From Myxococcales bacterium (GTDB lineage: Bacteria > Myxococcota_A > UBA9042), in the NCBI GenBank assembly GCA_037441385.1, contig JBBISH010000126.1:1-17349 (forward strand): 17,349 nt of DNA, given 5' to 3'. Numbering within the stretch: position 1 is the stretch's first letter; each line of letters begins with the position of its first letter. Shown here piece after piece: positions 1-17,349 of this stretch. The position numbers and the translations under genes were made by a program. The notes beneath the pieces were generated by a model. The model saw only the letters and a program-made list of their open reading frames with translations. It was not told the origin of the DNA and did no database searches.

Positions 1-101
1 GCAATTCTTCGGGCCAGAACCGGGGTCCCCGCCTGATTCTCGCCGGTTGCAGACCGGGTCAGAGAAGCCGTACAGGCGTGAATCAGACGGGGTTCGTATC
101 A
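1..101. repeat. Palindromic intergenic repeat / MITE-like element, copy 1 (left part cut off by the window edge)
   Basis: 1-102 aligns without gaps to 7883-7984 with 12 mismatches by manual count (~88% identity). Internal inverted repeat CCCCGCCTGATTCTCGCC (27-44) / GGCGTGAATCAGACGGGG (75-92). Ends ...CGTA-TCA, as copy 2 does. Confidence 0.85.
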
Positions 102-318
102 GACGGCCCGCTGCCTGCCCCGCAGCGGCTTTTCGCGCAACTGTGGCGCTGGCGCGCGTATTGTTTCGCCCTTGGAAACAATGCGATTCGTGACAATGCC
201 ATTGCAAATTGGCCAAGGGGGACGCATCCTCCCTCAGCCGGCGAGTCGATCGCCGAGCTGATGGCCGCCCCCATTTGCGGCGCGGTGCGGGCAAGAGCCC
301 GCGCCCAAGGGAAAACAA

Positions 319-1077
319 ATGAATCTGTCTCGTTACTCGTTCACGCTCGTCCTGGTTGGCGCGGTTGCGCTGTCGGCTTGTGCCAAGGACCCCTCCAAAG
401 CGGCGCCCGCGGCCAAGGTCGAGGAGCCCAAGAAGGAGGAGCCCAAGGCCGAAGAGCCCAAGAAGGAGGAGCCCAAGGTCGAGGCTCCGGCGGCGGCCAG
501 CCCGGTCGCGGCTCCGGCGGCGGCGTCGCCCACGGCGGCGGCTCCCGCCCTTACGTTCCCCGGTATCGCCTTGACCGGCTCGATCCACGCGATCGGCAGC
601 AAGGTCACGGGTTCGCACGAGCTGAACTTCAAGGAATGGAAGGGTTCGTTCGAGGCCAAGGACGGCAAGGCCGAAGGCGGCAAGCTGGAATTCCAGGTGC
701 AGATGGCCTCGCTGGAAGAAGTGGTCAAGGAGCGCAACGAGTGGGCTGAGAAGCTCGAGGGCCACCTGAAAAGCCCCGACTTCTTCGACGTGGGCGCCCA
801 GCCCACCGCCACCTTCGTCGCCAGCGAGATCAAGGCCGGCGGCGACGCTGCCGTGGCCGGCACCACCCACACCATCAAGGGCAACCTGACCTTGAAGGGC
901 ACCACCAAGGAAGTCACCTTCCCGGCCACCATCGCCATCGCCGGCAAGGACGTGAGCGCCAAGGCCGAGTTCTCGATCAATCGCAAGGACTTCGGCATCG
1001 TCTACGCCGGCAAGCCGGACGACCTGATCCGCGACGGCGTGGTCCTGAAGATCGACCTGAAGGCCACGCTGCCCTAG
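319..1077 (+). CDS. YceI-family (lipid/polyisoprenoid-binding) lipoprotein with a repetitive N-terminal linker
   Basis: Hydrophobic signal ending in lipobox LSAC; KEEP/APAAASP linker; YceI motifs HLKSPDFFDV, PTATF, GNLTLKGTTKEVTFP, FSINRKDFGI; strongly GC3-biased codons; AAGGGA upstream. Confidence 0.92.
   Translation: MNLSRYSFTLVLVGAVALSACAKDPSKAAPAAKVEEPKKEEPKAEEPKKEEPKVEAPAAASPVAAPAAASPTAAAPALTFPGIALTGSIHAIGSKVTGSHELNFKEWKGSFEAKDGKAEGGKLEFQVQMASLEEVVKERNEWAEKLEGHLKSPDFFDVGAQPTATFVASEIKAGGDAAVAGTTHTIKGNLTLKGTTKEVTFPATIAIAGKDVSAKAEFSINRKDFGIVYAGKPDDLIRDGVVLKIDLKATLP
415..540 (+). repeat. In-frame tandem repeats in the YceI linker: 30-nt unit x2 (421-480, built from 15-nt KxEEP units) and 27-nt unit x2 (484-537, APAAASPxA)
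   Basis: GAGGAGCCCAAGAAGGAGGAGCCCAAGGCC / GAAGAGCCCAAGAAGGAGGAGCCCAAGGTC, then GCTCCGGCGGCGGC at 484 and 511. Confidence 0.9.
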
Positions 1078-1176
1078 CGTTTTTGCAAGACCCCATCTCC
1101 GCGCGGTCGAGCACCGACGCCCGCCGGTCGCCAGCGGTCGGATCTGCACCCCCAAGGGGGCCAGCGGATCCGGCCG

Positions 1177-1206
1177 TTGGACGTTTTGCGCCCGCGTCGC
1201 TACACT
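1177..1206 (+). promoter_or_regulatory. Candidate sigma70-type promoter for the dehydrogenase/flippase-like gene pair
   Basis: TTGGAC (1177-1182), 18-nt spacer, TACACT (1201-1206), ~50 nt before ATG 1255. Preceded by a hairpin at 1139-1172 (CGGATCTGC...GCGGATCCG). Confidence 0.45.
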
Positions 1207-1254
1207 AACGCACCCTTGGGCGGACCGGACTCGGCCGCCGAACCGGAGTTGCGC

Positions 1255-2556
1255 ATGTCCCTCGTCCAGAAGATTGACAATCGTACGGCGAAAATTGCCG
1301 TGGTCGGCCTTGGTTATGTTGGATTGCCTTTGGCGGCGCGCTGCGCCGGTGTGGGCTTGCGGACCTTGGGCATCGACATCCAGCAAGCGCGCGTCGATCG
1401 CATCAACCGCGGCGAGTCCGACATCGGCGATGTGCCCAGCGAAGTGCTGGCGCCGCTGGTCAAGGCCGGCACCCTGACCGCCCACACCACCTTTGACGTG
1501 GTGGCCCAGGCCGACGCCGTGGTGATCTGCGTGCCCACGCCGCTGTCCAAGACCCGCGATCCCGACAACAGCTACATCATCAAGGCGCTCGAGTCGGTGC
1601 AGCCGTTCGTGCAAAAGGGCCAGCTGTTCGTGCTCGAGTCGACCACCTACCCCGGCTTTACGCGCGAGGTGATGGTGCCGATGCTCGAAGCAGCCAAGGG
1701 CCACAAAGCCGGCACCGAGATCCATGTGGCGTTCTCGCCCGAGCGCATCGACCCGGGCAACGAGAGGTTTGGCGTCAAGAACACCACCAAGATCGTCGGC
1801 GGCCTGACCCCGGCTTGCAGCGAGGCGGTGGCGGCGCTGTACGGCAGCTTCATCGACCACGTCAAAATGGTGACCAGCCCCGACTGCGCCGAGATGGTGA
1901 AGTTGCTGGAAAACACCTTCCGCGCCGTCAACATCGGCCTGGTCAACGAAGTCGCGCTGATGTGCCGCAAGCTCGGCCTCAACGTCTTCGAGGTCATCGA
2001 GGCCGCGGCGACCAAGCCCTTTGGTTTCATGCCCTTCTACCCTGGTCCGGGCTTGGGCGGCCACTGCATCCCCATCGACCCGCTGTACCTGTCGTGGAAG
2101 CTGAAGTCGATGAACTACCAGGCCCGCTTCATCGAGCTGGCCGACGCCATCAACACCCAGATGCCGGCCCACGTGGTCAGCCGCGTGCAAGACGCCTTGA
2201 ACGACCAGTGCAAGTCGCTGAAGAACGCCAAGGTGCTGGTGCTGGGCGTGGCCTACAAGCGCGACATCGACGACTTCCGCGAGTCGCCCGCCATCTCGGT
2301 GATGGACCTGCTGGAGAAGAAGGGCGCGCACGTCGAGTACTTTGACCCCTACGTGGCCAGCTTCAAGGAAGATGGGCACGTCCGCAGCAGCGTGGCCGAC
2401 CTGAGCCAGCTGGCCAGCTACGACGTGGCCGTGCTCACCACCGACCACAAGGCCTTTGACATGGGCGACATCGTGGCGCGCAGCCAACTGCTGGTCGATA
2501 CCCGCAATGCCTGCAAGCTGGTGACCGGCGACAAGTCCCACGTCTACGGTTTGTAA
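1255..2556 (+). CDS. Nucleotide-sugar dehydrogenase, UDP-N-acetyl-hexosamine 6-dehydrogenase type (WbpA/WecC-like)
   Basis: GLGYVGLP Rossmann motif, ICVPTP, LESTTYPG, FSPERIDPGN, KLLENTFRAVNI, catalytic GPGLGGHCIPIDP, LGVAYK..IDDFRESP. Start moved to ATG 1255 (GGAG at 1245-1248) rather than TTG 1177. Confidence 0.95.
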   Translation: MSLVQKIDNRTAKIAVVGLGYVGLPLAARCAGVGLRTLGIDIQQARVDRINRGESDIGDVPSEVLAPLVKAGTLTAHTTFDVVAQADAVVICVPTPLSKTRDPDNSYIIKALESVQPFVQKGQLFVLESTTYPGFTREVMVPMLEAAKGHKAGTEIHVAFSPERIDPGNERFGVKNTTKIVGGLTPACSEAVAALYGSFIDHVKMVTSPDCAEMVKLLENTFRAVNIGLVNEVALMCRKLGLNVFEVIEAAATKPFGFMPFYPGPGLGGHCIPIDPLYLSWKLKSMNYQARFIELADAINTQMPAHVVSRVQDALNDQCKSLKNAKVLVLGVAYKRDIDDFRESPAISVMDLLEKKGAHVEYFDPYVASFKEDGHVRSSVADLSQLASYDVAVLTTDHKAFDMGDIVARSQLLVDTRNACKLVTGDKSHVYGL

Positions 2557-2565
2557 GCCAGCCAA

Positions 2566-3750
2566 GTGCAGCAAAGCCCCGAAGAAACTCCCGGCGAGCA
2601 GCCCGGAGCCCTGGTCGAGTCGGTCGACGAGCGCCGCAACGTCTGGCGGCGTTGGCTGGGCGGCTTGGCCATCGGTGCCCTGTTTACCTGGTGGTCGTCG
2701 CGGTCGTGGCCGCTGGACCGGCTGTTTTCGGGGACGCTGGAGCTGGGGCGCGATGCCCACGGCGACTGGGCGGTGCGGCTGCTGGGCAAGTCGGGCGGCG
2801 AGAACTGGTCGCTGGACCTGCAGTATCTGGCCCTGTATTGCGGCTTTCTGACGGTCATTCACTGGTTGCGCGTGCTGCGCTGGCACCCGCTGCTCGAGCC
2901 CTACGCGCGCGTGCCGATCGCGGCGCTGAACCGCTCGGGCGCGGTGGGCTTCATGGCGGTGTTCCTGCTGCCGCTGCGGTTGGGCGAGCTGAGCCGACCG
3001 CTGATGCTCGCACGCAAACACGCGGGGCATCCGCCGGTGCCGTTTGCTGCGGGCCTGGCGACGGTGGCGCTTGAGCGGGTCTTGGATGGCCTGACCGTGA
3101 CCGCGCTGCTGTTCGTGGTGCTCTTCGAGGTGCACCCGGCCACGTTGGCGCGCCATCCGGGCATCCAGCAGGCGGCGTGGATCGCTGGCGCGGTGTTCCT
3201 TAGTGCGATCACTGGGTTAAGTGCCGTGCTCGTCGCCCGCGACTTCACCCTGCGCTGGAGCCGCAAGATCCTGGGTGCCGTGGCGCCGGGCGTGACCGAC
3301 AAGCTGCTGGGCATGGTCACCGCCTTTGTCGACGGCCTGGCAGTGCTGAAAAGCCCGTGGCACGTCGTGCAGTTCATCGGCATCACCATCGTCTATTGGG
3401 GCGTCAACGGCCTGGGCATCTGGCTGATGGCGCGCGGTTTTGGCTTGGACGTGCCCGTCATCGCCGGCTACGCCATGATGTGTTTTGTGGTGGTGGGGAT
3501 GATGATCCCCAACGCGCCAGCCAACGCCGGAAGCTTCTGGTACTTTTTGCTACTGCCGGCCGCATTGTACGGCGTGGACGAACAATCGCCGCGGGCGGTG
3601 GCCTTTGGCCTGGGGCTGTGGTTCGTGCAGACCGTGCAGGTGACGCTGTTTGGTCTGTGGGGCAGTTGGGCGGATGCGCGGGCGCTGACGCGGCATCGGC
3701 CCGAACTGCAGCCGCTCCACCGACCGGCCGACGATGGGCAAAATCGTTGA
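2566..3750 (+). CDS. Multi-pass membrane protein, lysylphosphatidylglycerol synthase TM / flippase-like (UPF0104) family
   Basis: LRVLRW..LL, LPLRLGELSRP, ALERVLDGL and IPNAPANAGSF motifs with many hydrophobic segments. Starts 9 nt after the dehydrogenase stop; the GTG start is uncertain. Confidence 0.85.
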   Translation: MQQSPEETPGEQPGALVESVDERRNVWRRWLGGLAIGALFTWWSSRSWPLDRLFSGTLELGRDAHGDWAVRLLGKSGGENWSLDLQYLALYCGFLTVIHWLRVLRWHPLLEPYARVPIAALNRSGAVGFMAVFLLPLRLGELSRPLMLARKHAGHPPVPFAAGLATVALERVLDGLTVTALLFVVLFEVHPATLARHPGIQQAAWIAGAVFLSAITGLSAVLVARDFTLRWSRKILGAVAPGVTDKLLGMVTAFVDGLAVLKSPWHVVQFIGITIVYWGVNGLGIWLMARGFGLDVPVIAGYAMMCFVVVGMMIPNAPANAGSFWYFLLLPAALYGVDEQSPRAVAFGLGLWFVQTVQVTLFGLWGSWADARALTRHRPELQPLHRPADDGQNR

Positions 3751-3776
3751 CCCCGCAAGCAACCTCGCGCTACGGT
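3747..3776 (+). promoter_or_regulatory. Candidate sigma70-type promoter for the Cys-rich lipoprotein
   Basis: TTGACC (3747-3752), 18-nt spacer, TACGGT (3771-3776); fits a start at ATG 3812 rather than 3734. Confidence 0.35.
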
Positions 3777-3811
3777 GCCCCCGGCGGCGGCGGGCCGCGG
3801 GCAAGGCAGCG

Positions 3812-6223
3812 ATGATCCAGCGGGCGCCAGCGTCGAGTGCGACCGTACTGCGCATCCTGTGGATTCTGCTTGGACTCTTGCTGTTGCCGGCCTGCCCGGC
3901 GCTCGTCCCCATCCCCGCCACCGCGGTCGTCCACACCGACGCGACCGGCAGCGACACCCTGGCCAAAGACACCGCCGTGGCCGACGTGCCCGAGGTCGAC
4001 TGCTGCAAAGCCAAAGGCGCCGTCTGCGGGTACGCGGGCAGCTGCGGCTGGTGCGGCGGCTGCGGGACCGGCACCGTCTGCGACACCGTGACCGGCTCGC
4101 CGACCCAGTACACTTGTGTGGCCAAGCCTGGCGGCGCCCCCAAGGCCAAGGACGGCGCGGCCTGCGGGCCCACCGCCACCTGTTTGCCACCGGGCAGCAA
4201 CGCCACCTCGGCTCAGAAGCAGAACTACGCGCAATGCTTGGATGATCAGTGCGAGAGCGGCCTGTGCTATTGGGGCGTGTGCAGCCGCACCTGCAGTCTG
4301 GCCAAAGACAGTGTGGTGAACTTCAGCGGCACCGCCACGCCCACCGGCGACGGCTTGGAAGATCCCGGCGTGGTCGGCGATTGCCAGGGCTTTGCCGACG
4401 GCCCGCTCGGCAGCCACTTCCTCTGCGCACAAATCACCGACCCGGCCCAGGGCAAGCCGGTCAGCTACTGCCTCGCCGGGACCACGTTTGCCCCGTGCAG
4501 CTCGAACAGCGACTGCGGCAGCGGCGAAGTGTGCAGCTACCGGACTGTGCGGGGCGCCTACCGGCAAGTGTGCGCGCCCGCCCAAAAGCAGGCCGACGGC
4601 AAGGCCGGCAAAGTCGGCGGCGCCTACTGCAACGGCGACCCAACGCAAGGACCAGTGATTGCTTGTAAAAATGGTATGTGTATGCCGTGGGGCGGCTGCA
4701 TCGACTTCTGCACCAGCAACGCTCAGTGCTCGACGGGCGGCGTGCCGATGTTCTGCGAGAACGGCGTGGCGGTCCTGGGCAGTCAGGCCCCGGCGTTCTC
4801 GGCGTGTGTGCCGCAGCACTGCGCGCTGGACAGCGACTGCAAGAACTCGGACTTCTTTTGTCTTTCCGTATACAACGGCGTCAAGCACCAGGGCGGCGAC
4901 CCGGATCCCAGCCAGCCCGGCCAACTGAAATTGCCCGGCTGGGACGCGTCGATCTGCGTCCCCAAGGCGCCCGGAACCGCGGCGCGCGGCGAGGCTTGCG
5001 ACGCCTATCCCGGCAGCGGCGACAGCACGCAAAAGCCTTGCGAGACCAAGTATTGGTGCGTGAACGGCAGCTGCGGCGGCCACTGCAAGACCGCTGCGGA
5101 CTGCGCGTCTGACCAAGTCTGCGCCGTGCAGGAGTTCGCCTTCGACACCAGCCAGCCCGCCGACAGCCAGCCCGACGTGTTCACGGCCCTGCATGTGTGC
5201 TCGCCCCTGCCCAAGGCGGCCGGACCGTGCCTGTCGCCCAAGCAGTGCGCCGATTCCGTGGCCAGCTACTGCCGCGCGGTCGAGGTCGATCTGGCGGCGG
5301 CGGCCACCAAGACGGGGCTGTTCACCATCCAGGCGCAGTGCATTGCCCCCGATCCCAGCCTGGCCGCGCTGGGCGAGAAGTGCGGGGTCGCCGTGGGCAA
5401 GGCCTGCCAAAGCGGCATCTGCCTTGGGGTTTCTAGCGACGCCAGTGGCAAGCCCACCGCCGGCTGGTGCACCGACGTCTGCGGCACCAGCAACGACTGC
5501 CCGGCCAGCGCGCCGATCGCCGTGGCCGGCGGCAAGGCCTTTCCGTTTGCCTGCGGCAGCATCGCCCTGGCCGACAACGCCACCGAGCAGCCCTACGACA
5601 ACCTGTACCTGCCGGTGTGCCTGCCCCAACCGGCCGGGTCCTCACTGAGCGATTGCACTGCGACGCTGGCCTGCGCGCCAGGCGAAAGCTGCCAGCCGTT
5701 TGCCATCGCACTGGGCCCCGACGCCGCCGCCAAGGTCGAATACCGCTGCATCAAAGCCTGGGTATCGCCCGTGGCGCAGAAGAAGGCGGGCGACCTCTGC
5801 AACCCGAGCGCCGGCGCCAATGACCCGGCCGAATGCGCCTCGCGGCTGTGCCTGCCCGATGCGCAGACCGGCAAGGGCTACTGCTCGGCCCTCTGCAAGG
5901 CCAGCACCGACTGTGGCACCCTGGACAAGATGCAGTGCGACACCAACCACCAGATGATTCCGCGCCAAAGCCCGAGCATGCCGGCCGTGGTGCCGCTGTG
6001 CCAAAAGCACAAGTCGTGCATCCCATGCCGTTGGGACTACCAGTGCCCCGACACCATGAAGTGCACTTGGCTTGCCCCAGGCGACGCAAGTGGTCACTGC
6101 GCGCCACCCTGCGGCCAATCCAGCGACTGCGCCGCCACCGACGGCGGGCCGACCTGCCAGGCCGCCGTCGATCGCTATGGCAAATCGGTCGGCGCCACGG
6201 TCTGTACCCCCACCTGCCCTTGA
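3812..6223 (+). CDS. Large cysteine-rich exported lipoprotein (~803 aa), function unknown
   Basis: Hydrophobic stretch ILWILLGLLLL plus lipobox-like LPAC; recurring disulfide modules such as CESGLC, CQSGIC, CASRLC and C..DSDC/C..ASTDC; normal codon bias. The track start at 3734 overlaps the previous gene, so ATG 3812 is preferred. Confidence 0.8.
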   Translation: MIQRAPASSATVLRILWILLGLLLLPACPALVPIPATAVVHTDATGSDTLAKDTAVADVPEVDCCKAKGAVCGYAGSCGWCGGCGTGTVCDTVTGSPTQYTCVAKPGGAPKAKDGAACGPTATCLPPGSNATSAQKQNYAQCLDDQCESGLCYWGVCSRTCSLAKDSVVNFSGTATPTGDGLEDPGVVGDCQGFADGPLGSHFLCAQITDPAQGKPVSYCLAGTTFAPCSSNSDCGSGEVCSYRTVRGAYRQVCAPAQKQADGKAGKVGGAYCNGDPTQGPVIACKNGMCMPWGGCIDFCTSNAQCSTGGVPMFCENGVAVLGSQAPAFSACVPQHCALDSDCKNSDFFCLSVYNGVKHQGGDPDPSQPGQLKLPGWDASICVPKAPGTAARGEACDAYPGSGDSTQKPCETKYWCVNGSCGGHCKTAADCASDQVCAVQEFAFDTSQPADSQPDVFTALHVCSPLPKAAGPCLSPKQCADSVASYCRAVEVDLAAAATKTGLFTIQAQCIAPDPSLAALGEKCGVAVGKACQSGICLGVSSDASGKPTAGWCTDVCGTSNDCPASAPIAVAGGKAFPFACGSIALADNATEQPYDNLYLPVCLPQPAGSSLSDCTATLACAPGESCQPFAIALGPDAAAKVEYRCIKAWVSPVAQKKAGDLCNPSAGANDPAECASRLCLPDAQTGKGYCSALCKASTDCGTLDKMQCDTNHQMIPRQSPSMPAVVPLCQKHKSCIPCRWDYQCPDTMKCTWLAPGDASGHCAPPCGQSSDCAATDGGPTCQAAVDRYGKSVGATVCTPTCP

Positions 6224-9742: not shown

Positions 9743-10501
9743 ATGCCCAGCCGCCGCTTTGCCCTGGTGTTTCTTGGCCTCTTGATTGGTTCCACTGCGC
9801 CGGCCGCCGAGCCCACTGCCGCGCTACTGCCGCCGTTCCAGACCAGCGAAGGCGAAATCGACCCGCTCTACCTGCGCGAAGGCTGCCACTGGACGTCGGC
9901 CGACGAGAAGGAGCTGGCCTGCATCGCGATCACCAACTGCGAGGGCTGCATGGAGTTTCGCGTGGAGGTGCGGACCCTGGGCAGCAAGAAGCGGCGCAAG
10001 TTCGTCGTCTTTGGCGGCAAGGACTCGACTTTCCAAGCCAAGGGGTTTGCTGCGGCGCAGAAGTACTTGAGCGGCAAGCACTTCGCCGCTCCCGAGCGCC
10101 TGCCCGCCAGCGCTGGCAGCGTCCGCAAAGACAGCGACAACGCCCGCACGCTTCTGGTGCAAGCACTGGGGCAGACGGTGAGTGCCAAGCTGCCGAACTT
10201 TGATCCGCGCCAGGTCCCGACCAAAAGTGACCGCGCCGCCCGCGACTTGCCAGTCGATTGGGACAAGGTGCGCGCCCGGCCTGCGGCCGAACGCATCGCG
10301 GCGTGCTGTGGCGACCTGATCGACGCGCTGTACTGGCTGCCCAAGACGCGGCGAGCGCTGGCGATGGTCACCTCGCGCTGCGACTTCGAGCCCGAGCCCG
10401 ACAACCGTCTGTGCTTGCACCCGGACTACAACGCCGAGTTGGACACCGAGTCGGGGTTTGCCGTGTACGAATTGGCCGTGCCGGCGACCCCGACGCACTG
10501 A
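9743..10501 (+). CDS. Hypothetical secreted protein (252 aa) with several cysteines
   Basis: AGGAG at 9731-9735; signal peptide MPSRRFALVFLGLLIGSTAPA; normal codon bias; no recognised domain. Confidence 0.75.
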   Translation: MPSRRFALVFLGLLIGSTAPAAEPTAALLPPFQTSEGEIDPLYLREGCHWTSADEKELACIAITNCEGCMEFRVEVRTLGSKKRRKFVVFGGKDSTFQAKGFAAAQKYLSGKHFAAPERLPASAGSVRKDSDNARTLLVQALGQTVSAKLPNFDPRQVPTKSDRAARDLPVDWDKVRARPAAERIAACCGDLIDALYWLPKTRRALAMVTSRCDFEPEPDNRLCLHPDYNAELDTESGFAVYELAVPATPTH

Positions 10502-10514
10502 GGCCACGCGCGGG

Positions 10515-11840
10515 CTAGTACGCCGTCGCCGCGTAGGCGCGCAAGCTCTTGACGCCGTCCGGCGGCGAAATCAGGTAGTACTGGGTGGTGGGGATGGTCA
10601 TTTCGGCCACCGCAGCGCCGCCGTCGCCCAAGACGAGCACGTCGCTGTTGCCAAGCCAGAACACTTCGGCTTCGCCCGGTGCCACGATGGTATTCTTTGG
10701 CAGTTTCTGCGACTTGCGCAGCTTGGCCAGGTTGATTTGCACCAGTCCCTTGGTCGTGGCGGCCCATGTCGCGCCGGTCTGGGCGTCGAACACGAACGTC
10801 GCCAGGTACACGTAGTCGCCCTGCTCCGCGACCACGTCGGAGTCGCGCAGCACCCCAAAGCGCCCGGAAGCCGAGGTCGCATCGGGCACAAAGTGTTGCG
10901 ATTCCGGGCTGAATGGCCACGCCTTGCCCGCCTCGGCCTTGGGCGCGGGCCGTTGCGGCACGGTGCACAGGTCCTTGGTCACCGGCTTGCCCTTCACCAT
11001 GGTCTGACACGCCTCGCCGCCAAAGACCACGCGATCCTGCACTTTGCCGGTCGCGAGGTCGACTCGGTAGTTGATGAGGATGTTCGCCATGTTTGCGTTG
11101 CGGTCCGAGATCTGGAAGCACGCGATTTGGGCTGCCGCGTCGACGCCAAAATTGCGCTCGTCCTGGATGTAGTCCAGCGGGTTCAAGGCTGCGCCCTCGG
11201 CGACGGCCGGGCGGGCCTCTTTCGCCGGCGAGGGCGCGGGAGCCGCAGCGGCGGTGCTGTCTTGGGCGGCGCCCTCGGCCGCGGGCTCGTCGGGCGCGGG
11301 CCCGTTGCCTGTGGCGCTCAAGAAGCACTCGTTCTTCAGCTTGGGTAGCGTTGCCACGACCTTTTGCTCGCCCGTGCGCAGGTCCAGCCGGACGATCTGA
11401 CGCTTGGCCGGCACCACATAGAAAAGCAAGCGGCGGTCGCCGGTTCGGTCGATGCGCAGATGCGTGGCGTGGGCGGTCGACAGGTCGGCAATCGGCGTGA
11501 AATCGGGGGCCAGCGCGTGGATCCCCTTGCGATCCGCGAGGATGAGTACCCCGCCATGCAGAGCTTGGGCGGCATCTAGCTTGCCGGCCAGCGAGTCCGG
11601 GGCCACGGCGGCGGCAGTGGCGGCGGCTGGTGGCTCGGCGGCGGCAGGGCTTGCCTCGGCGGGAGCTTGGGCTGGCGTGGCGGCTGCGGGCGGCGGCACG
11701 GGAGTGGGCGGCGCGGTGGGCGTGGTGGCTGTCGGCGGGGCTGGCGAGGCGGGTTCCGGCGGGGCCTTTTGGCAGGCTGCGGGCAAGAGTGCGCCAAGAA
11801 AGACGCTGAATTTCAAAAGGTGTCTAAAGGTAGGGGACAT
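10515..11840 (-). CDS. Hypothetical lipoprotein with a Pro/Ala-rich tether and a beta-rich (possibly propeller-like) body
   Basis: MSPTFRHLLKFSVFLGALLPAAC lipoprotein signal from ATG 11840, a long Pro/Ala/Thr linker, then beta-strand-like segments (IVRLDLRTGE, YRVDLATGKV, FVFDAQTGA). Confidence 0.75.
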   Translation of the reverse strand: MSPTFRHLLKFSVFLGALLPAACQKAPPEPASPAPPTATTPTAPPTPVPPPAAATPAQAPAEASPAAAEPPAAATAAAVAPDSLAGKLDAAQALHGGVLILADRKGIHALAPDFTPIADLSTAHATHLRIDRTGDRRLLFYVVPAKRQIVRLDLRTGEQKVVATLPKLKNECFLSATGNGPAPDEPAAEGAAQDSTAAAAPAPSPAKEARPAVAEGAALNPLDYIQDERNFGVDAAAQIACFQISDRNANMANILINYRVDLATGKVQDRVVFGGEACQTMVKGKPVTKDLCTVPQRPAPKAEAGKAWPFSPESQHFVPDATSASGRFGVLRDSDVVAEQGDYVYLATFVFDAQTGATWAATTKGLVQINLAKLRKSQKLPKNTIVAPGEAEVFWLGNSDVLVLGDGGAAVAEMTIPTTQYYLISPPDGVKSLRAYAATAY

Positions 11841-12041
11841 AGCGGGCCTCGCAGTTGCCGCGGCGGCAGAGGGCACTAGCCTGCCGCATCTTGGGCCCCA
11901 GGGAAAGTGACAGACGTCGTCGCAAAAAGCCAACTGTTTCCAGGGGTAGAAAATGCCCCCCATCGCCGCGTGCCCCTTGCAGAAATCGGCCGGGCGCGGA
12001 ACACTGCGCGCCCCCCGGCCAGCGCCGGCCGCCCGACCGCC

Positions 12042-13016
12042 ATGCCTTCATCCCCCATCGCGACCCGTCCTTCTGTCTGCATCGTCGGCGCCACCGGCTA
12101 CGCGGGCCAGGAACTGCTGCGCTTGCTGCGCGGACACCCGCACGTCGGTCCGGTGACGACCGCCCCATCGCGCGAAGGTACGGCTGCGATCCCAGAGGAT
12201 GTTCGATGGATTTTCTTGGCGACTCCGGCCGAGACCAGCGCCGAATTGGCCGAGCCCCTGGTCGAGCGAGGGCAGCGCGTGATCGACCTGTCGGGCGCCC
12301 ACCGCGCCGGCACTGCCACAAAGCACCGAGCCGCCTACGGTTTTGACCACCCGCACCCCGCCGCGCTGGCGCATGCGGCCTATGGCTTCGACGCGCCGGC
12401 GGACACGCTGCTACAAGCGAACTTGATTGCCAATCCAGGCTGCTACGCCAATGCGCTGCTCTCGGCTTTGGTGCCGCTGCAGACTGCAGGAGTGCTGGCC
12501 CCGGGCGCAGTGGTCGACGCCACTGGCATCAGCGGCGTGTCGGGCGCCGGCCGCAACCCCACCGAGCGGACCATGTACATGTACGTGGCCGAAAACCTTG
12601 CCCCTTATCGCACCGGCCGCGCCCACCAGCACTTGGTCGAGGTCGAGGGCCGCGCGGACGTCCACCTGCTGTTCGTGCCGCTCGTGGCGCCGCTGCGGCG
12701 CGGGATGCTCGTCTCGGGCAGTGTCGACGTGGGGCCGTGGCTGGCCCGCAACCCCGGGTCGTCGCTGCCGAACCTGAGCCTGGCGGGCGATCCGCTGTGG
12801 CAACAGGTGGCCGCCGCGCCCGACGTGCTGGCGGTGGCCGAGCAGAATACCGTGCAGGTCCACTACTTCTTGGATGCCGCTGCGGGCCGGGTGCAGTTCG
12901 TCAGCGTCATCGACAACCTGCTGCGCGGCGCCGCCTCGCACGCCGTGTACAACCTGAACCTGGCCATGGGCTGGCCGGCGCTGGCCGGGCTGCAGCCAGG
13001 GGGGAATCATGACTGA
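12042..13016 (+). CDS. argC: N-acetyl-gamma-glutamyl-phosphate reductase
   Basis: IVGATGYAGQELLRLL..HP, VIDLSG, catalytic IANPGCY, SGVSGAG, DNLLRGAA. ATG 12042 chosen because homology begins just after it; overlaps the argJ start by 8 nt. Confidence 0.92.
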   Translation: MPSSPIATRPSVCIVGATGYAGQELLRLLRGHPHVGPVTTAPSREGTAAIPEDVRWIFLATPAETSAELAEPLVERGQRVIDLSGAHRAGTATKHRAAYGFDHPHPAALAHAAYGFDAPADTLLQANLIANPGCYANALLSALVPLQTAGVLAPGAVVDATGISGVSGAGRNPTERTMYMYVAENLAPYRTGRAHQHLVEVEGRADVHLLFVPLVAPLRRGMLVSGSVDVGPWLARNPGSSLPNLSLAGDPLWQQVAAAPDVLAVAEQNTVQVHYFLDAAAGRVQFVSVIDNLLRGAASHAVYNLNLAMGWPALAGLQPGGNHD

Positions 13017-14673
13017 TCTCAAGGCTATCGACCCCGTCCTCCCCGCCGGCGTGCGCGTGCTGGGCGGCCACAGCGGCATCAAGGCCAGCCGCTTGGACAC
13101 GGCCGTGCTGGTCTTTGCCCGCCCGGTGCCGGTGGCCGGCACGCTGACCCGCAATCGTTGCGCGGCGGCCTGTGTCGAGGGCAACCGCCCGCTGCTGCCC
13201 GGCCTGGCCAGCGCCTTTGTCGCGGTCAGTGGCAACGCCAACTGCTACGCCGCCGGGGATCGCGAGGCCGATCAGCTGCTTCGCTCGGGTCTGGCCGCCG
13301 CGCTGGCGGCCGAAGGCAAGACCGGCGGCGCCATCCTCACCGCCACCACCGGCCCGATCGGCGTGCCCTTCGACGCGCAGCAGGTGGTCGACAAGCTGCC
13401 GGTCATCCTCTCGCAACCCAGCAGCTGGGAAGCGTTTTCCCAGGCCGTGCTGACCACCGACACAGTCGCCAAGGTCGCCTGTTTCCGCTACGGCGGCGCG
13501 ACCTGGTTGGGCATCGCGAAGGGCTCGGGGATGATCCACCCCGACATGGCGACGATGATTGCGGTATGCGTCACCGACGCCCAGATCGACCCGCAGGTGC
13601 TCGACGCCGCCACCAAGCGCGTGGTTGCCCGCACCTTCAACGCCGTCACCGTCGACCGCGACACCTCGACCAACGACACCGCCCTGGTGTTCGCAACCGG
13701 CGTCGCCGGCCCGGTCAGCGACCCCGAACTGCCCATGCACGCTGTGTTTTCCGCGCTGGCCCAGGCGATCGCCCGCGACGGCGAAGGTGCCACCCGCATG
13801 GTCACCGTGCAGGTCCGCGGCGCGACCAACGACGAGGTGGCGCGCACCACCGCCCGCGACATTGCCGGCAGCGATCTGGTCAAAAGTGCGCTGTTTGCCT
13901 GCGATCCCAACTGGGGCCGGGCGGTGGCGGCCCTGGGCGCGTCGCTGGCGCGGCAAGACCAGCCGCTGGACCGGTCGCTCGTGACGATTGCCCTGCAAGG
14001 TCAGCCGGTTTACCCGCCCAGCCAGACCCTGGACCGGGCCGAACTGGGGGCCAGGCTGCGCGCCAGCGACACCATCACCTTGGACCTGTGCATCGGCGCC
14101 GGCCCAGGCCAGGGCGTCGCCTGGGGCTGCGACCTCAGCTACGACTACGTGCGCATCAACGCCGAGGCCCCGGTCGCCTACGGTGCAGTGGGCAGCAGCG
14201 CCCCGGTGCGCGCCAGCCTGGAACTGCAGACCCTGACCCCGGTACTGAAAAAGGGCGTGCTGCGCGAGGCTTTGCGCTACCTGCACCAGCACGACCGCAT
14301 GACCATGGTCTTTCTGGTCCAGGCTGAGTCGCCCACCCTGGACGATGACCTGGCCCTGCTGCGTCAGACCGGCATCCGCCCCATCGTGTTGCGCGGCGCC
14401 AGCTTGTCGGCGGCGGTGGCGGTGGCGCGCGACAACCACGCCAGCAAGCTGCTGATTTTGACCGACGCCGACGGCCTGCGCGCGGCCGATGGGCACCTGG
14501 CCAGCGAGCTGGGGCCGCCCGAGCTGCCCGACCACTACCTAGCGGCGCAGGTGCCGGCCTTCTTGCAGGGCGGCGGCACGCTCCACGTCCTCAATGGCCA
14601 GGTGCACGCGGCCCTGATCGAAGAGCTGTTTACCGATCGCGGGATTGGCACCATGGTCCGTGCCAGAATGTAG
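13009..14673 (+). CDS. argJ: Ornithine/glutamate N-acetyltransferase ArgJ fused to a degenerate, internally deleted acetylglutamate kinase (ArgB)-like domain
   Basis: ArgJ motifs: SGNAN, TGPIG, LTTDT, KGSGMIHPDMATM (autocleavage Thr), DRDTSTND, ARDGEGAT, LVKSALF..DPNWGR, GCDLSYDYVRINA (ends ~14163). The extra ~170 aa contain EALRY, DLALL..GIRPIV, KLLILTD..G and HVLNG..HAALIEELFTDRGIGTM. Confidence 0.92.
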   Translation: MTDLKAIDPVLPAGVRVLGGHSGIKASRLDTAVLVFARPVPVAGTLTRNRCAAACVEGNRPLLPGLASAFVAVSGNANCYAAGDREADQLLRSGLAAALAAEGKTGGAILTATTGPIGVPFDAQQVVDKLPVILSQPSSWEAFSQAVLTTDTVAKVACFRYGGATWLGIAKGSGMIHPDMATMIAVCVTDAQIDPQVLDAATKRVVARTFNAVTVDRDTSTNDTALVFATGVAGPVSDPELPMHAVFSALAQAIARDGEGATRMVTVQVRGATNDEVARTTARDIAGSDLVKSALFACDPNWGRAVAALGASLARQDQPLDRSLVTIALQGQPVYPPSQTLDRAELGARLRASDTITLDLCIGAGPGQGVAWGCDLSYDYVRINAEAPVAYGAVGSSAPVRASLELQTLTPVLKKGVLREALRYLHQHDRMTMVFLVQAESPTLDDDLALLRQTGIRPIVLRGASLSAAVAVARDNHASKLLILTDADGLRAADGHLASELGPPELPDHYLAAQVPAFLQGGGTLHVLNGQVHAALIEELFTDRGIGTMVRARM

Positions 14674-14720
14674 CAGCCATTTTCTACTGGTTGAAATTAA
14701 ACAATAAAGTCACCAGCACC

Positions 14721-15398
14721 CTAGAACGGCAACTGCATAGCCTGGCACAAGAACTTCTGCAGCCCGGCGCCCTTGGCCATCGCCGCCGCGTACAGGGCCG
14801 GAAAATCGGGCCGCTGTGCGTCCTGCTCGCTGAAGTTGGCCACTGCGATGAAGTCCTTGCGCTTCAGGTCCTCGATGAGCGGGTGATCGGCCGCGTACCC
14901 GGCAGGCGGACGCTTCAAGCTCGAACCGTGCAACACCAACCCGGACTTGGCCACCTCCCAGTCGTCCGAGTGCTCGACGATGCAGGTGCGGATGGCGTGC
15001 AGCGCGTCGGGCGGCGGCTGCCACATGCCAAAACCGCCGAATACGCCAGCCATTTCGTCGTGGCCGTCGGGTGCCAGGTTGAAGTAGAAGCCGGGGGCGT
15101 GCACCGCCTCGCTCAGCGGTCCGCCCGTCATGCTGTGGCGAAACTGCGCCGCCAGGTGCGTCTTGTACGGCGACTTGTCGTGCGAAAACCGCACGTCGCG
15201 GTGGATGCGAAACACGGACCGCTGGTCGCCGACGAAATACCGCGACATCTGCTCTAGGTAAGGGCGCATCGCTCCAACGAATTCCAACAGCGGCTCTTTG
15301 CAGTGGCGCTCGTAGCGGTTGCGGTTGGCATCGAACCACTCCTTGTTGTTGTGGTCGCGCAGGTCGCGCAAGAAGGCAAAGGTCTCGGCTGTGAACAT
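14721..15398 (-). CDS. DUF2461 / TIGR02453-family protein
   Basis: FLRDL..HNNKEWFDANR..YE, FRIHRDVRFSHDKSPYKT, APGFY, GGFGMWQP, LKRPP.GY..DHPLIEDLKRKDF. AGGAG immediately upstream of ATG 15398. Confidence 0.92.
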   Translation of the reverse strand: MFTAETFAFLRDLRDHNNKEWFDANRNRYERHCKEPLLEFVGAMRPYLEQMSRYFVGDQRSVFRIHRDVRFSHDKSPYKTHLAAQFRHSMTGGPLSEAVHAPGFYFNLAPDGHDEMAGVFGGFGMWQPPPDALHAIRTCIVEHSDDWEVAKSGLVLHGSSLKRPPAGYAADHPLIEDLKRKDFIAVANFSEQDAQRPDFPALYAAAMAKGAGLQKFLCQAMQLPF

Positions 15399-15409
15399 GG
15401 TGCTCCTTG

Positions 15410-15652
15410 CTAGCGGGCCCAACCGCCACGCATCCCCAACGCTTGGGCCAGGTGATCATTGCATAGGGCTTCGGGATCGCCCGTTGCTTGGCGCTCGTGG
15501 GCACAGGCCGCGCAAGCGGCCGCCGATGCGTAGGTATCTTCGGCGCGGGCCTGGGCCAGGGCCGCCTGCAGGCGCGTGTCCCCGCGCTCGCCCGGTTCCA
15601 GAGCGGGCCGATTCACGGGCTTTGCCGGTCGGTGGGGCGGACGGAAGCTCAT
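15410..15652 (-). CDS. Probable small protein (80 aa) with a CxxC ... CxxH motif
   Basis: Last 80 codons of the long antisense ORF 15410-17251, read from ATG 15652: ...[34 protein letters not shown].... Fills an otherwise empty gap; its TAG sits 11 nt before the DUF2461 start. No clear RBS. Confidence 0.55.
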
Positions 15653-15736
15653 CGGCGCACGGGGCGGTCGCAGGCCGCACGCCGATGCTGCGCGAATTCC
15701 CAAGGGCTGTCGAGTCCGCGCCGCGCGCAGCGCCCG

Positions 15737-15765
15737 TTGACGCGGCGTGCCGCGGTCGGCATAGT
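15737..15765 (+). promoter_or_regulatory. Candidate sigma70-type promoter for the TSP3-repeat lipoprotein
   Basis: TTGACG (15737-15742), 17-nt spacer, CATAGT (15760-15765), ~60 nt upstream of ATG 15827. Confidence 0.5.
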
Positions 15766-15826
15766 CGGCTTGGTGACCAGTGCGGCCTTGCCCTCTCGCT
15801 TCCGTCCCACGCAGCCGAGTGACACT

Positions 15827-17349
15827 ATGAAGAAACTCCAGATCTTTGCTCCCAAATCCCCCTTGCACCCGTGGTTGCTGCTGGCGGCGGCGCTGTGGCT
15901 GACTCCCGCTTGCGGCGACCCCGAGACCGTCACTGGCGCCCCGGACACCAAGATCGACACGGTGGGCAAAGGGGACCTGATCGACGACCTCACCGAGCAG
16001 GACAGCGAAGACACGGGCAGCGAGCCGGACATCGTCAGCATCGACATCGCCGGCAAAGACGTGACATATCCCAAGGTACCGTGCCAAAAGAACGAGGACT
16101 GCGAGACGCTGATCTGCGCCTCCACGCCCACCGGCAAAGAGTGCGCCCAGTCCTGCATCACCGGTTGCCCGGCCGACTACGAGTGCGTCCAGACCACCGC
16201 GAGCGGCGACGTGGTCAGCGTCTGCATGCACAAGGCGCCCTATCAGTGCGCGCCGTGCGTCAAGGATGCCGACTGCGACCTGGGCAAGGACGCCAAGGGC
16301 GTGTGCGTCGACCTGGGCCAAGGCACCCACTGCGTCCAGCCCTGCACCGGCGGCAAGACCTGCATCGGCGAGGGCTTTGCTTGCACCACGGTCGGCTCTG
16401 CGCAAGTCTGCACGCCTCCGGGTGGCCAATGCCCCTGCCCCGACGGCCAGACGGGCAACTGCAAGATCACCAACACCTTTGGTAGCTGTCCGGGCACCTA
16501 CACCTGCATCGGCGGCAAGGAAGGGGCCTGTACCGGCACCGCCCCCGTCGCCGAAACCTGCAACCTCAAGGACGACAACTGCGACGGCGCCACCGACGAG
16601 GCCATCCCACCCGGCGAGTGCTCGATCAAGAATGCCTACGGTACCTGCCCCGGCAAGACGCAATGCGTCGCTGGGCAGGACCTGTGCCAAGGGAGCGGCG
16701 CGGCGGCCGAGGTGTGCAACGGCATCGACGACAACTGCTCGGGCGCGACGGACGAGGGCTTTAGCAACCTGGATGGCGACGATCTGGCCGACTGCGTCGA
16801 CCCCGACGACGACGGCGACGGTGTCAACGATAACGTGGACAACTGCCCGGTAGCCTTGAACAAAGACCAGACCGACACCGACGGCGACGGCCAGGGCGAC
16901 GTGTGCGACGCCGACGACGACAACGACAAGGTCTTGGACGGCGACGACAATTGCCCGCTGGCCGCCAACACCACCCAGACCGACTCGGACGGCGACGGCA
17001 CCGGCAACGCCTGCGACTGCGACATCGACGGCGACGGCGTGGCCAACTTGCTGGCGACCAACCCCGGCGTCATCAGCCCCGCGGTGCAGTGCCCGCAGGA
17101 TGTCACGCTGGACAATTGCCCGCTCACGGCCAACGCCGGTCAGAGCGACGTGGACGGCGACGGCTTGGGCGATGCCTGCGATGACGATCAAGACGCCGAC
17201 GGCGTGGCCAATGCCAACGACAACTGCCCGCTGATCCCGAACGCTGATCAAGCCAACAACGACAAGGACTTGCAGGGCGACGTCTGCGACCCGGACGACG
17301 ACAACGACGGCGTGCAGGACCCCGTGGACAACTGCCCGCTGGCTGCCAA
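15827..17349 (+). CDS. Large surface lipoprotein (5' part, runs off the window): Cys-rich modules, ExCNxxDDNCxGxxDE metal-binding motifs, then thrombospondin type-3 repeats
   Basis: Translated by hand (absent from the ORF track because there is no stop): [33 protein letters not shown]...; [16 protein letters not shown] and [16 protein letters not shown]; then repeated DNCP..N..Q.D.DGDG.GD.CD units to the window end. Confidence 0.92.
16770..17349 (+). repeat. Degenerate tandem coding repeats for thrombospondin type-3 (Ca2+-binding) units
   Basis: GACAA(C/T)TGCCCG recurs five times (~16838, 16946, 17111, 17219, 17327), mostly 108 nt apart, with one longer unit. Confidence 0.85.

Follow-up and report, generated by a model that had tools for sequence, protein, structure and literature searches.

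In the cyclic pathway of arginine synthesis, control is normally divided between two enzymes, with arginine acting on acetylglutamate kinase (ArgB) and ornithine acting on ornithine acetyltransferase/glutamate N-acetyltransferase (ArgJ), as set out in PMC3827942, which also cites the ArgJ protein of C. glutamicum as being unaffected by arginine. According to PMC1382215, it cannot be predicted from sequence whether an ArgJ protein is bifunctional and uses acetyl-CoA or is monofunctional, and the passages on ArgJ in a 2015 review of acetylglutamate synthase types (PMC4490483) present it only as a stand-alone enzyme. Here, we analyze an argJ gene in a 17,349-nucleotide (nt) stretch of DNA from a Myxococcales bacterium (contig JBBISH010000126.1 of assembly GCA_037441385.1; this whole stretch is referred to here as the window), the product of which continues past the ArgJ fold into a C-terminal tail. 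Judged by sequence comparison and structure prediction, this tail is a folded, strongly conserved mini-domain that derives from acetylglutamate kinase and is catalytically dead, and we propose that it probably acts as an arginine sensor.

The arginine site itself has been described for kinases and for acetylglutamate synthases. PMC4490483 gives E-(L/I)-(F/M)-(T/S)-X-X-G-X-G-T as the motif of the arginine loop and K201 and E270 as key residues of the N. gonorrhoeae N-acetylglutamate synthase (NAGS). PMC2566978 lists F35, E280, G286, and G288 as arginine-site residues of the Xanthomonas enzyme, reports that the arginine response of one bacterial and one mouse enzyme was abolished by mutations of the aromatic N-helix residue, of the Glu, and of both Gly residues, and describes E. 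coli ArgB as arginine insensitive. In related enzymes, arginine causes the N-helix to shift, and the C-lobe moves against an N-lobe that is anchored in the dimer, according to PMC3329491.

A kinase remnant behind a complete ArgJ

The match of the window protein to the ArgJ profile PF01960 spans profile positions 4 to 374 of 377 and is thus full length; the NCBIfam ArgJ equivalog models score slightly under their cutoffs (335.7 versus 351 and 286.5 versus 298). In a Foldseek comparison, the predicted ArgJ fold matched S. clavuligerus OAT2 (1vz8_B) with an E value of 1.8e-37, a template modeling (TM) score relative to the target of 0.92, and a root mean square deviation amounting to 2.3 Å. The first 386 residues are a complete ArgJ with an intact self-cleavage site, in which Thr182 (Table 1) is the expected nucleophile, as the title of a reference listed in PMC4490483 (Marc et al. 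2001) indicates.

A preliminary description of this DNA had placed the end of the ArgJ fold near base 14163 and had stated that the frame runs on with normal codon bias. Both observations hold: the ArgJ end motif ...CDLSYDYVRINA finishes at base 14163 and is followed by 169 further residues, namely, a linker of about 20 amino acids (aa) and a domain of about 150 aa. The G+C content at third codon positions (GC3) is 0.88 in the tail versus 0.89 in the ArgJ part and is uniform through the deletion junction described below. The strings that had been read as following the order of the kinase are found as quoted, with VLREALRY at residues 417 to 424, DLALL..GIRPIV at residues 447 to 460, A.KLLILTD at residues 478 to 486, and HVLNG..HAALIEELFTDRGIGTM at residues 526 to 549.

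The claim that the tail is a remnant of an ArgB-type kinase was borne out by sequence, profile, and structure comparisons. A phmmer search of the PDB paired it with the arginine-bound kinase of T. maritima (2bty; E value of 7.4e-11) in two pieces, with tail residues 58 to 80 aligned to T. maritima residues 41 to 63, tail residues 82 to 166 aligned to residues 183 to 278, and T. maritima residues 64 to 182 left unmatched. Profile-profile comparison of 19 tails with 15 stand-alone kinases by hhalign gave one end-to-end alignment (probability of 98.8; E value of 1.2e-16), interrupted cleanly at two places, about 66 to 191 and about 239 to 250 of the template, and in the family alignment, the tail shows a gap of 119 columns relative to protein P0024 at the junction of the large deletion. 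The best NCBIfam matches of the tail were ArgA models (E value of 1.1e-10). Two kinase models scored below threshold on it, with 17.2 bits versus a cutoff of 24.9 for Pfam AA_kinase (PF00696) and 16.9 versus 151.3 for TIGR00761 (argB). Pfam by itself would overlook this tail, and the tails of about 230 aa at two related loci (L004 and L055) are without any AA_kinase match.

AlphaFold2 predicted the isolated tail, from a 51-row alignment, as a compact α/β domain of the order α-β-α-β-α-β... behind a disordered linker, with a mean predicted local distance difference test (pLDDT) score of 89.3 and a predicted TM (pTM) score of 0.81. The model of the full-length protein (mean pLDDT of 92.2; pTM of 0.78) contains the same tail elements, with the linker being less confident; pLDDT is below 50 at tail residues 1 to 16 in the isolated model and 60 to 77 at residues 391 to 420 in the full-length model. 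A comparison of the predicted structure with an arginine-bound kinase had been suggested earlier, and the best Foldseek match of the tail in the PDB was indeed 2bty (E value of 2.4e-9), followed by the arginine-bound N. gonorrhoeae synthase 3d2p (TM score of 0.69) and then by arginine-sensitive kinases (TM scores of 0.64 to 0.67). There were 126 matches with an E value of ≤1e-3, and among the matches listed (approximately the 30 best), all have the amino acid kinase fold. The structural matches include the PII-kinase complexes 2v5h, 2jj4, and 2rd5.

KxGG, HGGG, NxNAD, and GGMxPK are catalytic or substrate-binding motifs of acetylglutamate kinase, and the preliminary description had reported all of them as absent or altered in the tail. 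Alignment with true kinases agrees: FLVQAES stands in the KxGG columns and LRGASLS in the HGGG columns, and all 18 aligned rows of the mini form, i.e., of proteins with the short tail, have gaps at NxNAD and GGMxPK. Neither K.GG nor HGGG is kept in any of these 18 rows, and K.GG is present in 17 of 18 stand-alone kinases. By these motifs, the tail cannot be a kinase.

What is retained corresponds to the arginine site, as had also been proposed. The residues published in PMC4490483 and PMC2566978 map to Y424 (the equivalent of F35/F121 in PMC2566978), K480, E539, G545, and G547, all of which are invariant in a family alignment of 19 members; E539 and G547 are, in addition, invariant in 51 of 51 rows of a wider tail alignment. 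In the phmmer alignment, K480 (K95 in tail numbering) pairs with residue 221 of the 2r8v chain and E539 pairs with E270 of N. gonorrhoeae NAGS (residue 290 of the 2r8v chain). Equating K480 with K201 and E539 with E270 assumes about 20 extra N-terminal residues in the 456-residue 2r8v chain relative to the native synthase, an offset that fits both residues. All 18 mini rows retain the arginine-loop motif, its final position being T or S. E. coli ArgB, which served as a negative control, begins at strand 1 without an N-helix, has no Lys at the K480 column, and reads ALFNGMPMGT in the loop. On sequence grounds, the tail retains the elements that form the arginine pocket in arginine-sensitive kinases and ArgA-type synthases, which are the N-helix, helix A together with strands 1 and 2, and the C-lobe.

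These features recur. A word-index search returned 23 proteins with an E value of ≤0.001 among 4575 candidates, i.e., the window protein, 21 relatives, and one full-length fusion of ArgJ to ArgB. The 21 relatives represent 90%-identity clusters from separate contigs, and their tails are 66 to 88% identical across 98 to 100% of the length. The family alignment holds 19 members including the window protein; the fragments P0017 and P0021 and the 873-aa protein P0019 were omitted. Both deletions lie at the same columns in all 19 members. The earlier suggestion that the same internal deletion might recur with a ratio of nonsynonymous to synonymous substitutions (dN/dS) below 1 also held up, the NG86 values for the window versus a second mini form, at locus L001, being 0.20 for the tail and 0.24 for ArgJ, although they are rough, with dS at 1.2 to 1.4 and near saturation. 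The tail thus appears to be under purifying selection.

The mean pairwise identity among the 19 members is 0.74 for the tail, compared with 0.70 for each of the ArgJ subunits. Within the tail, it amounts to 0.84 in the N-helix half and drops to 0.49 on the former nucleotide side (residues 490 to 525), which is the least conserved part. Residues 406 to 425 (20 positions) and 533 to 545 (13 positions) form runs that are invariant in the 19 sequences. These runs coincide with the N-helix and with the last helix and its loop, so that conservation follows the arginine site rather than being spread evenly. Among 1.84 billion representatives, 2 clusters were found at an E value of ≤1e-10, both including ArgJ sequence, and no stand-alone mini-domain was found at that threshold. 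The 178-aa protein P0038 was considered as a stand-alone mini-domain and was rejected, as its internal deletion is a different one and it still has KxGG and GGMxPK; probably, it either has no relation to the family or is an artifact, and it may be a misassembled or broken argB. The omitted P0019 joins ArgC, ArgJ, and a mini tail, the short tail having been seen by eye, and represents either a real triple fusion or a contig frameshift.

Fused relatives and the course of reduction

The next-best representatives (E value of approximately 1e-7) are ArgJ-ArgB fusions of about 700 aa, which are the nearest full-length relatives of the window protein. A genome scan returned 80 loci, of which 14 were examined frame by frame (Table 1). 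Match lengths had suggested that four of them encode fusions; this was dismissed after the frames showed separate argJ and argB genes. Intact fusions of about 680 to 740 aa (L002 and proteins P0025, P0037, P0044, and P0058) carry K.GG, HGGG, N.NAD, and GGM.PK-like motifs and would potentially be enzymes for steps 1/5 and 2 on a single chain. In two further proteins, P0035 and P0043, the fused tail is of full size, the kinase motifs are lost, and the arginine signature is kept.

A search with the tail of L004 returned 131 proteins with an E value of ≤0.001, from sources that include Nannocystaceae, Paraliomyxa miuraensis, and Enhygromyxa salina. Of the best 120 of these 131 proteins, 111 are at least 600 aa long, and in 101 of them, the end of ArgJ was found by pattern; the other 10 were dropped. 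The arginine loop and helix pattern is kept in all 101 of the resulting tails of about 230 aa, and K.GG, HGGG, N.[NS]AD, and GGM.PK are found in none (family proteins P0082 to P0201, examples being P0088 from P. miuraensis and P0201 from E. salina). Databases label these tailed proteins as plain ArgJ or, for some, wrongly as "acetylglutamate kinase."

In trees of the ArgJ domain made by a quick method, the mini clade is monophyletic, with a Shimodaira-Hasegawa-like approximate likelihood ratio test (SH-aLRT) support of 100 and a long stem, and the clade with tails of about 230 aa is monophyletic as well (SH-aLRT of 99). The dead full-size proteins P0035 and P0043 nest separately among the intact fusions, with SH-aLRT values of 98 and 91 and, in a second tree, 79 and 95. 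A single clade for the 29 fused ArgJ rows (versus 21 unfused rows) was not rejected by the approximately unbiased (AU) test (P = 0.51). Because dead forms are nested separately in clades of intact fusions, kinase decay would have been repeated and independent, which implies that the kinase died several times and that the arginine signature was kept each time. An unfused ArgJ from a Melainabacteria bin (L005, positions 4251 to 5417) stands beside the mini clade on a long branch in both trees (SH-aLRT of 85 to 90), which may be due to long-branch attraction.

Taken together, the relatives can be arranged by sequence into a series that runs from the intact fusion through the full-size dead form and the dead tail of about 230 aa to the mini form of about 150 aa. 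An origin from ArgA, which the best NCBIfam matches of the tail would suggest, was set aside, as the nearest full-length proteins are the fusions of about 700 aa; the most likely ancestor of the remnant is an ArgB that had been joined to ArgJ beforehand.

Proposed function of the tail and alternative explanations

We propose that the tail is a built-in arginine sensor that gives ArgJ arginine feedback, and we place the probability of this at about 0.55, based on the sequence, on the structural models, and on analogy. Two deletions removed the acetylglutamate-binding and dimerizing lobe and the nucleotide loop from a kinase that most likely was fused to ArgJ by then. In the proposed mechanism, l-arginine would be bound between Y424 of the N-helix, the Lys of the sheet (K480), E539 of the last helix, and the G-x-G-T loop, and the helix shift that it drives would reach ArgJ via the linker of about 20 residues that leads from the N-helix to the ArgJ C terminus or, alternatively, would act through N-helix-mediated assembly of ArgJ tetramers. 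ArgJ would thereby become a point of arginine feedback, as is ArgA with its dead kinase domain, and the kinase step would be encoded elsewhere in the genome. The sensor proposed in the preliminary description is thus supported by sequence, structure prediction, and comparison, and we infer the function itself on good grounds.

Several points weigh against an arginine sensor. The dimer anchor of the N-lobe is deleted in the tail, and the known route of transmission can therefore not apply unchanged. The loop, the Lys, and the helix could be conserved for folding or for protein contacts instead of for arginine, and invariance at 20 of 20 N-helix positions is more than ligand binding would require and suggests that the helix serves, at least in part, as a surface for contacts between proteins. 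No separate argB was found in the window or at loci L001, L004, and L055, the kinase-like matches there being the tails themselves. In addition, the position of the mini clade among the fusions is unsettled in the ArgJ-domain trees (supports of 84 to 90), and a dS above 1 makes the dN/dS values rough.

Owing to the invariance of the N-helix, the main rival remains a role of the tail in assembly or docking, in which interlaced N-helices would hold ArgJ tetramers together or ArgJ would dock on a free-standing arginine-sensitive kinase by mimicking one of its subunits in a metabolon, the arginine-site residues being kept for the shape of the interface or for coregulation. We regard this as a serious possibility but one that falls well short of even odds. 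It would account for the N-helix region being the most conserved of the whole protein and would fit a helix that makes interdimer contacts in hexameric kinases and synthases, as well as the yeast synthase, which occurs solely as a complex with the kinase (PMC3329491 and PMC4490483). Furthermore, with the dimer lobe of the kinase deleted, the dimer of ArgJ itself could substitute for it. However, it leaves unexplained why the ligand-contacting Glu and Lys and the G-x-G-T loop are invariant across the mini, 230-aa, and dead full-size forms, and no partner gene adjoins the tailed argJ in the window or at L001, L004, and L055. That the tail senses another ligand or partner, such as ornithine, acetylglutamate, a nucleotide, or a PII-type protein, seems improbable to us. 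The C-lobes of the kinase fold do bind nucleotides, and PII binds kinases of this family, as the complexes among the structural matches illustrate; the nucleotide loop of the tail is deleted, though, the nucleotide side is its least conserved part, the acetylglutamate lobe is gone, there is no PII gene nearby in the window, and the residues that are conserved are those of the arginine pocket.

Two further explanations would make the tail a leftover or an artifact. It would be a decaying leftover of an ArgJ-ArgB fusion if it were kept only because its loss would destabilize ArgJ, and the loss of the kinase motifs and the size of the deletions would agree with decay. We nevertheless consider this very improbable, as the tail equals or exceeds ArgJ in conservation, by identity and by dN/dS, the boundaries of the deletions are identical in all aligned members, the predicted fold is confident, and conservation follows the arginine site. 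The deletion could also have been produced by misassembly or a frameshift in a gene that in truth encodes a full ArgJ-ArgB fusion, a concern that had been raised in the preliminary description and that is reasonable for a window that is probably metagenomic. With a similar tail in 21 further clusters from several sources and contigs, 18 of which were aligned and share the same in-frame architecture, with a genome-bin contig (L001) among the family, and with uniform GC3 across the junction, the chance of an artifact is negligible, and recurrence effectively refutes it.

If the tail is an arginine sensor, a broader picture is conceivable, to which we would give somewhat less than even odds and which we put forward only tentatively. 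Arginine feedback would have moved from the kinase to ArgJ, and the module of about 150 residues, composed of the N-helix, two strands, and the C-lobe, would be the smallest self-sufficient arginine-binding unit of the amino acid kinase fold, switching the activity or assembly of ArgJ. The real kinase would be a separate protein, possibly of the arginine-insensitive type, and repeated decay would constitute a second route to the design of ArgA, with an unrelated acetyltransferase.

Gene neighborhood and comparison with described systems

The coordinates of all features are collected in Table 1.

Table 1. Features of the window and related loci examined
Feature	Sequence	Coordinates	Strand	Basis or remark
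argC (N-acetyl-gamma-glutamyl-phosphate reductase)	Window	11907..13016	+	Longest open reading frame (ORF) from GTG 11907
argJ-tail ORF	Window	13009..14673	+	554 aa, ATG start, TAG stop; ArgJ domain, linker, minimized kinase-fold tail
ArgJ (ornithine acetyltransferase/glutamate N-acetyltransferase) domain, residues 19-386	Window	13063..14166	+	Pfam PF01960, E value 2.6e-98
Thr182 within predicted KGSGMIHPDMA/TMIA self-cleavage site (cleavage at the slash)	Window	13552..13554	+	T182 and flanking KGSGM.HP..AT invariant in 19-row family alignment
Linker, residues 387-405	Window	14167..14223	+	Low pLDDT; length varies by 3 aa between subclades
N-helix, residues 411-426, with Y424 at 14278-14280	Window	14239..14286	+	Helix in both AlphaFold2 models; aligns with N-helix of arginine-sensitive kinases
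What is left of strand 1, helix A, and strand 2 of the kinase (residues 432-462)	Window	14302..14394	+	Holds the former KxGG and HGGG columns
Large-deletion junction, residues 463-468	Window	14395..14412	+	About 120 kinase residues gone, i.e., the acetylglutamate lobe including NxNAD
C-lobe remnant, residues 466-554	Window	14404..14670	+	Second deletion of about 10-15 aa removes GGMxPK loop
K480, counterpart of arginine-site Lys (K201 of N. gonorrhoeae NAGS)	Window	14446..14448	+	phmmer pairing with 2r8v chain residue 221
E539-L-F-T-D-R-G-I-G-T548	Window	14623..14652	+	Exact match to published arginine-loop motif
Mini form	L001, Myxococcales bin contig			63% identical
Intact ArgJ-ArgB fusion	L002, Polyangium jinanense	9899-12121		Pfam AA_kinase, E value 7.4e-48
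Dead tail of about 230-245 aa	L004, Myxococcota bin	10001-11929
Dead tail of about 230-245 aa	L055, Myxococcota bin	10001-11869
Separate adjacent argJ and argB genes	L017, L036, L057, L065
Unfused ArgJ	6 further examined loci

The window has a G+C content of 67.6%, and the tailed argJ lies directly downstream of argC, which has Pfam matches to Semialdhyde_dhC_1 (E value of 1.7e-26) and Semialdhyde_dh (E value of 2.5e-16). The end of argC, including its stop codon, shares 8 nt with the beginning of argJ (ATGACTGA at positions 13009 to 13016), which suggests coupled translation. argC is also found directly upstream of the fused or tailed argJ at loci L002 and L004. The true start of argC is likely ATG 12039 rather than GTG 11907; the GTG version has about 44 extra N-terminal codons (positions 11907 to 12047) that lie outside the Pfam match and overlap the 5' end of a divergent ORF on the minus strand (positions 10515 to 12047; 482 to 511 aa). 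The latter has a signal-like start and an Ala/Pro-rich region and is without a Pfam match. A promoter and terminator scan of positions 11700 to 14900 gave no promoter-like sites and one terminator-like site, versus 1.8 expected by chance. At locus L055, the tailed argJ is directly followed by an ArgR gene with both Pfam domains (positions 11833 to 12306) and then by a Ser/Thr protein kinase gene with tetratricopeptide repeats.

Elsewhere in the window, a DUF2461 gene (positions 14721 to 15455, minus strand) is convergent with argJ, and an open-ended ORF at positions 15467 to 17347 encodes four thrombospondin type 3 repeats (Pfam E value of 3.2e-32). Positions 3734 to 6223 encode a Cys-rich protein of 829 aa, the N terminus of which resembles that of a secreted protein or lipoprotein and which has no Pfam match; the long minus-strand ORFs that overlap it and that lie at positions 1 to 3156 are probably spurious, given their wrong codon-position G+C pattern.

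Our literature searches found no paper that describes a fusion of ArgJ to a kinase fold, matches to "argJB" being Staphylococcus operon names, and found no description of the intact ArgJ-ArgB fusions either. By these searches, an arginine-sensing domain on ArgJ has not been reported so far; a dead kinase-fold domain that binds arginine is itself known from ArgA. If the tail does sense arginine, a textbook pathway for which PMC3827942 and PMC4490483 place ornithine on ArgJ and arginine on the kinase or ArgA would gain a new control point, and the tail would reveal the portion of the kinase fold that suffices for an arginine pocket. Since the natural reductive series is found partly in cultured species (E. 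salina, P. miuraensis, and P. jinanense), the evolution of a sensor from a pseudoenzyme could be tested directly, and the domain, as a small and portable binder of arginine, could become a component of biosensors.

Compared with the stand-alone ArgJ proteins of S. clavuligerus (OAT2, 1vz8) and M. tuberculosis (3it4), the window protein has the same complete ArgJ part, including the self-cleavage Thr. Known stand-alone proteins stop a few residues past ...INA(D/E)Y.., whereas the window ArgJ has an added domain that looks regulatory, and stand-alone ArgJ is described in PMC3827942 as being inhibited by ornithine and not by arginine. With the full ArgJ-ArgB fusions and the dead-tailed ArgJ proteins of about 230 aa, the window family has in common the order of the domains, the position of the linker, the upstream argC, and the arginine signature; however, it represents the most reduced stage, is only 27 to 35% identical to the tails of these proteins, and forms a clade of its own. 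The tail is likewise homologous to the arginine-sensitive hexameric kinases of T. maritima (2bty), P. aeruginosa (2buf), and M. tuberculosis (2ap9 and 7nlf) but differs from them by the loss of all four kinase motifs and of about 130 residues.

The closest parallel in design is the kinase domain of ArgA, as seen in N. gonorrhoeae NAGS (2r8v and 3d2p). Both are dead kinase-fold domains joined to an enzyme that acetylates glutamate, and they share the N-helix aromatic residue, the Lys of the sheet, the Glu of the last helix, and the E-L-F-T-x-x-G-x-G-T loop. The ArgA domain is of full size (about 280 aa), is followed by a GNAT domain, and assembles into a hexameric ring, whereas the window tail, at about 150 aa, is without the whole lobe for acetylglutamate and dimer formation and lies C-terminal to an unrelated acetyltransferase of the N-terminal nucleophile type, ArgJ. 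Pfam and NCBIfam scans found no GNAT domain after the tail, the ORF ending 6 residues past the arginine loop; the tail would work in the manner of the ArgA domain but does not belong to the ArgA family. As its nearest sequence relatives are the ArgJ-ArgB fusions, its likeness to ArgA would be convergent in design.

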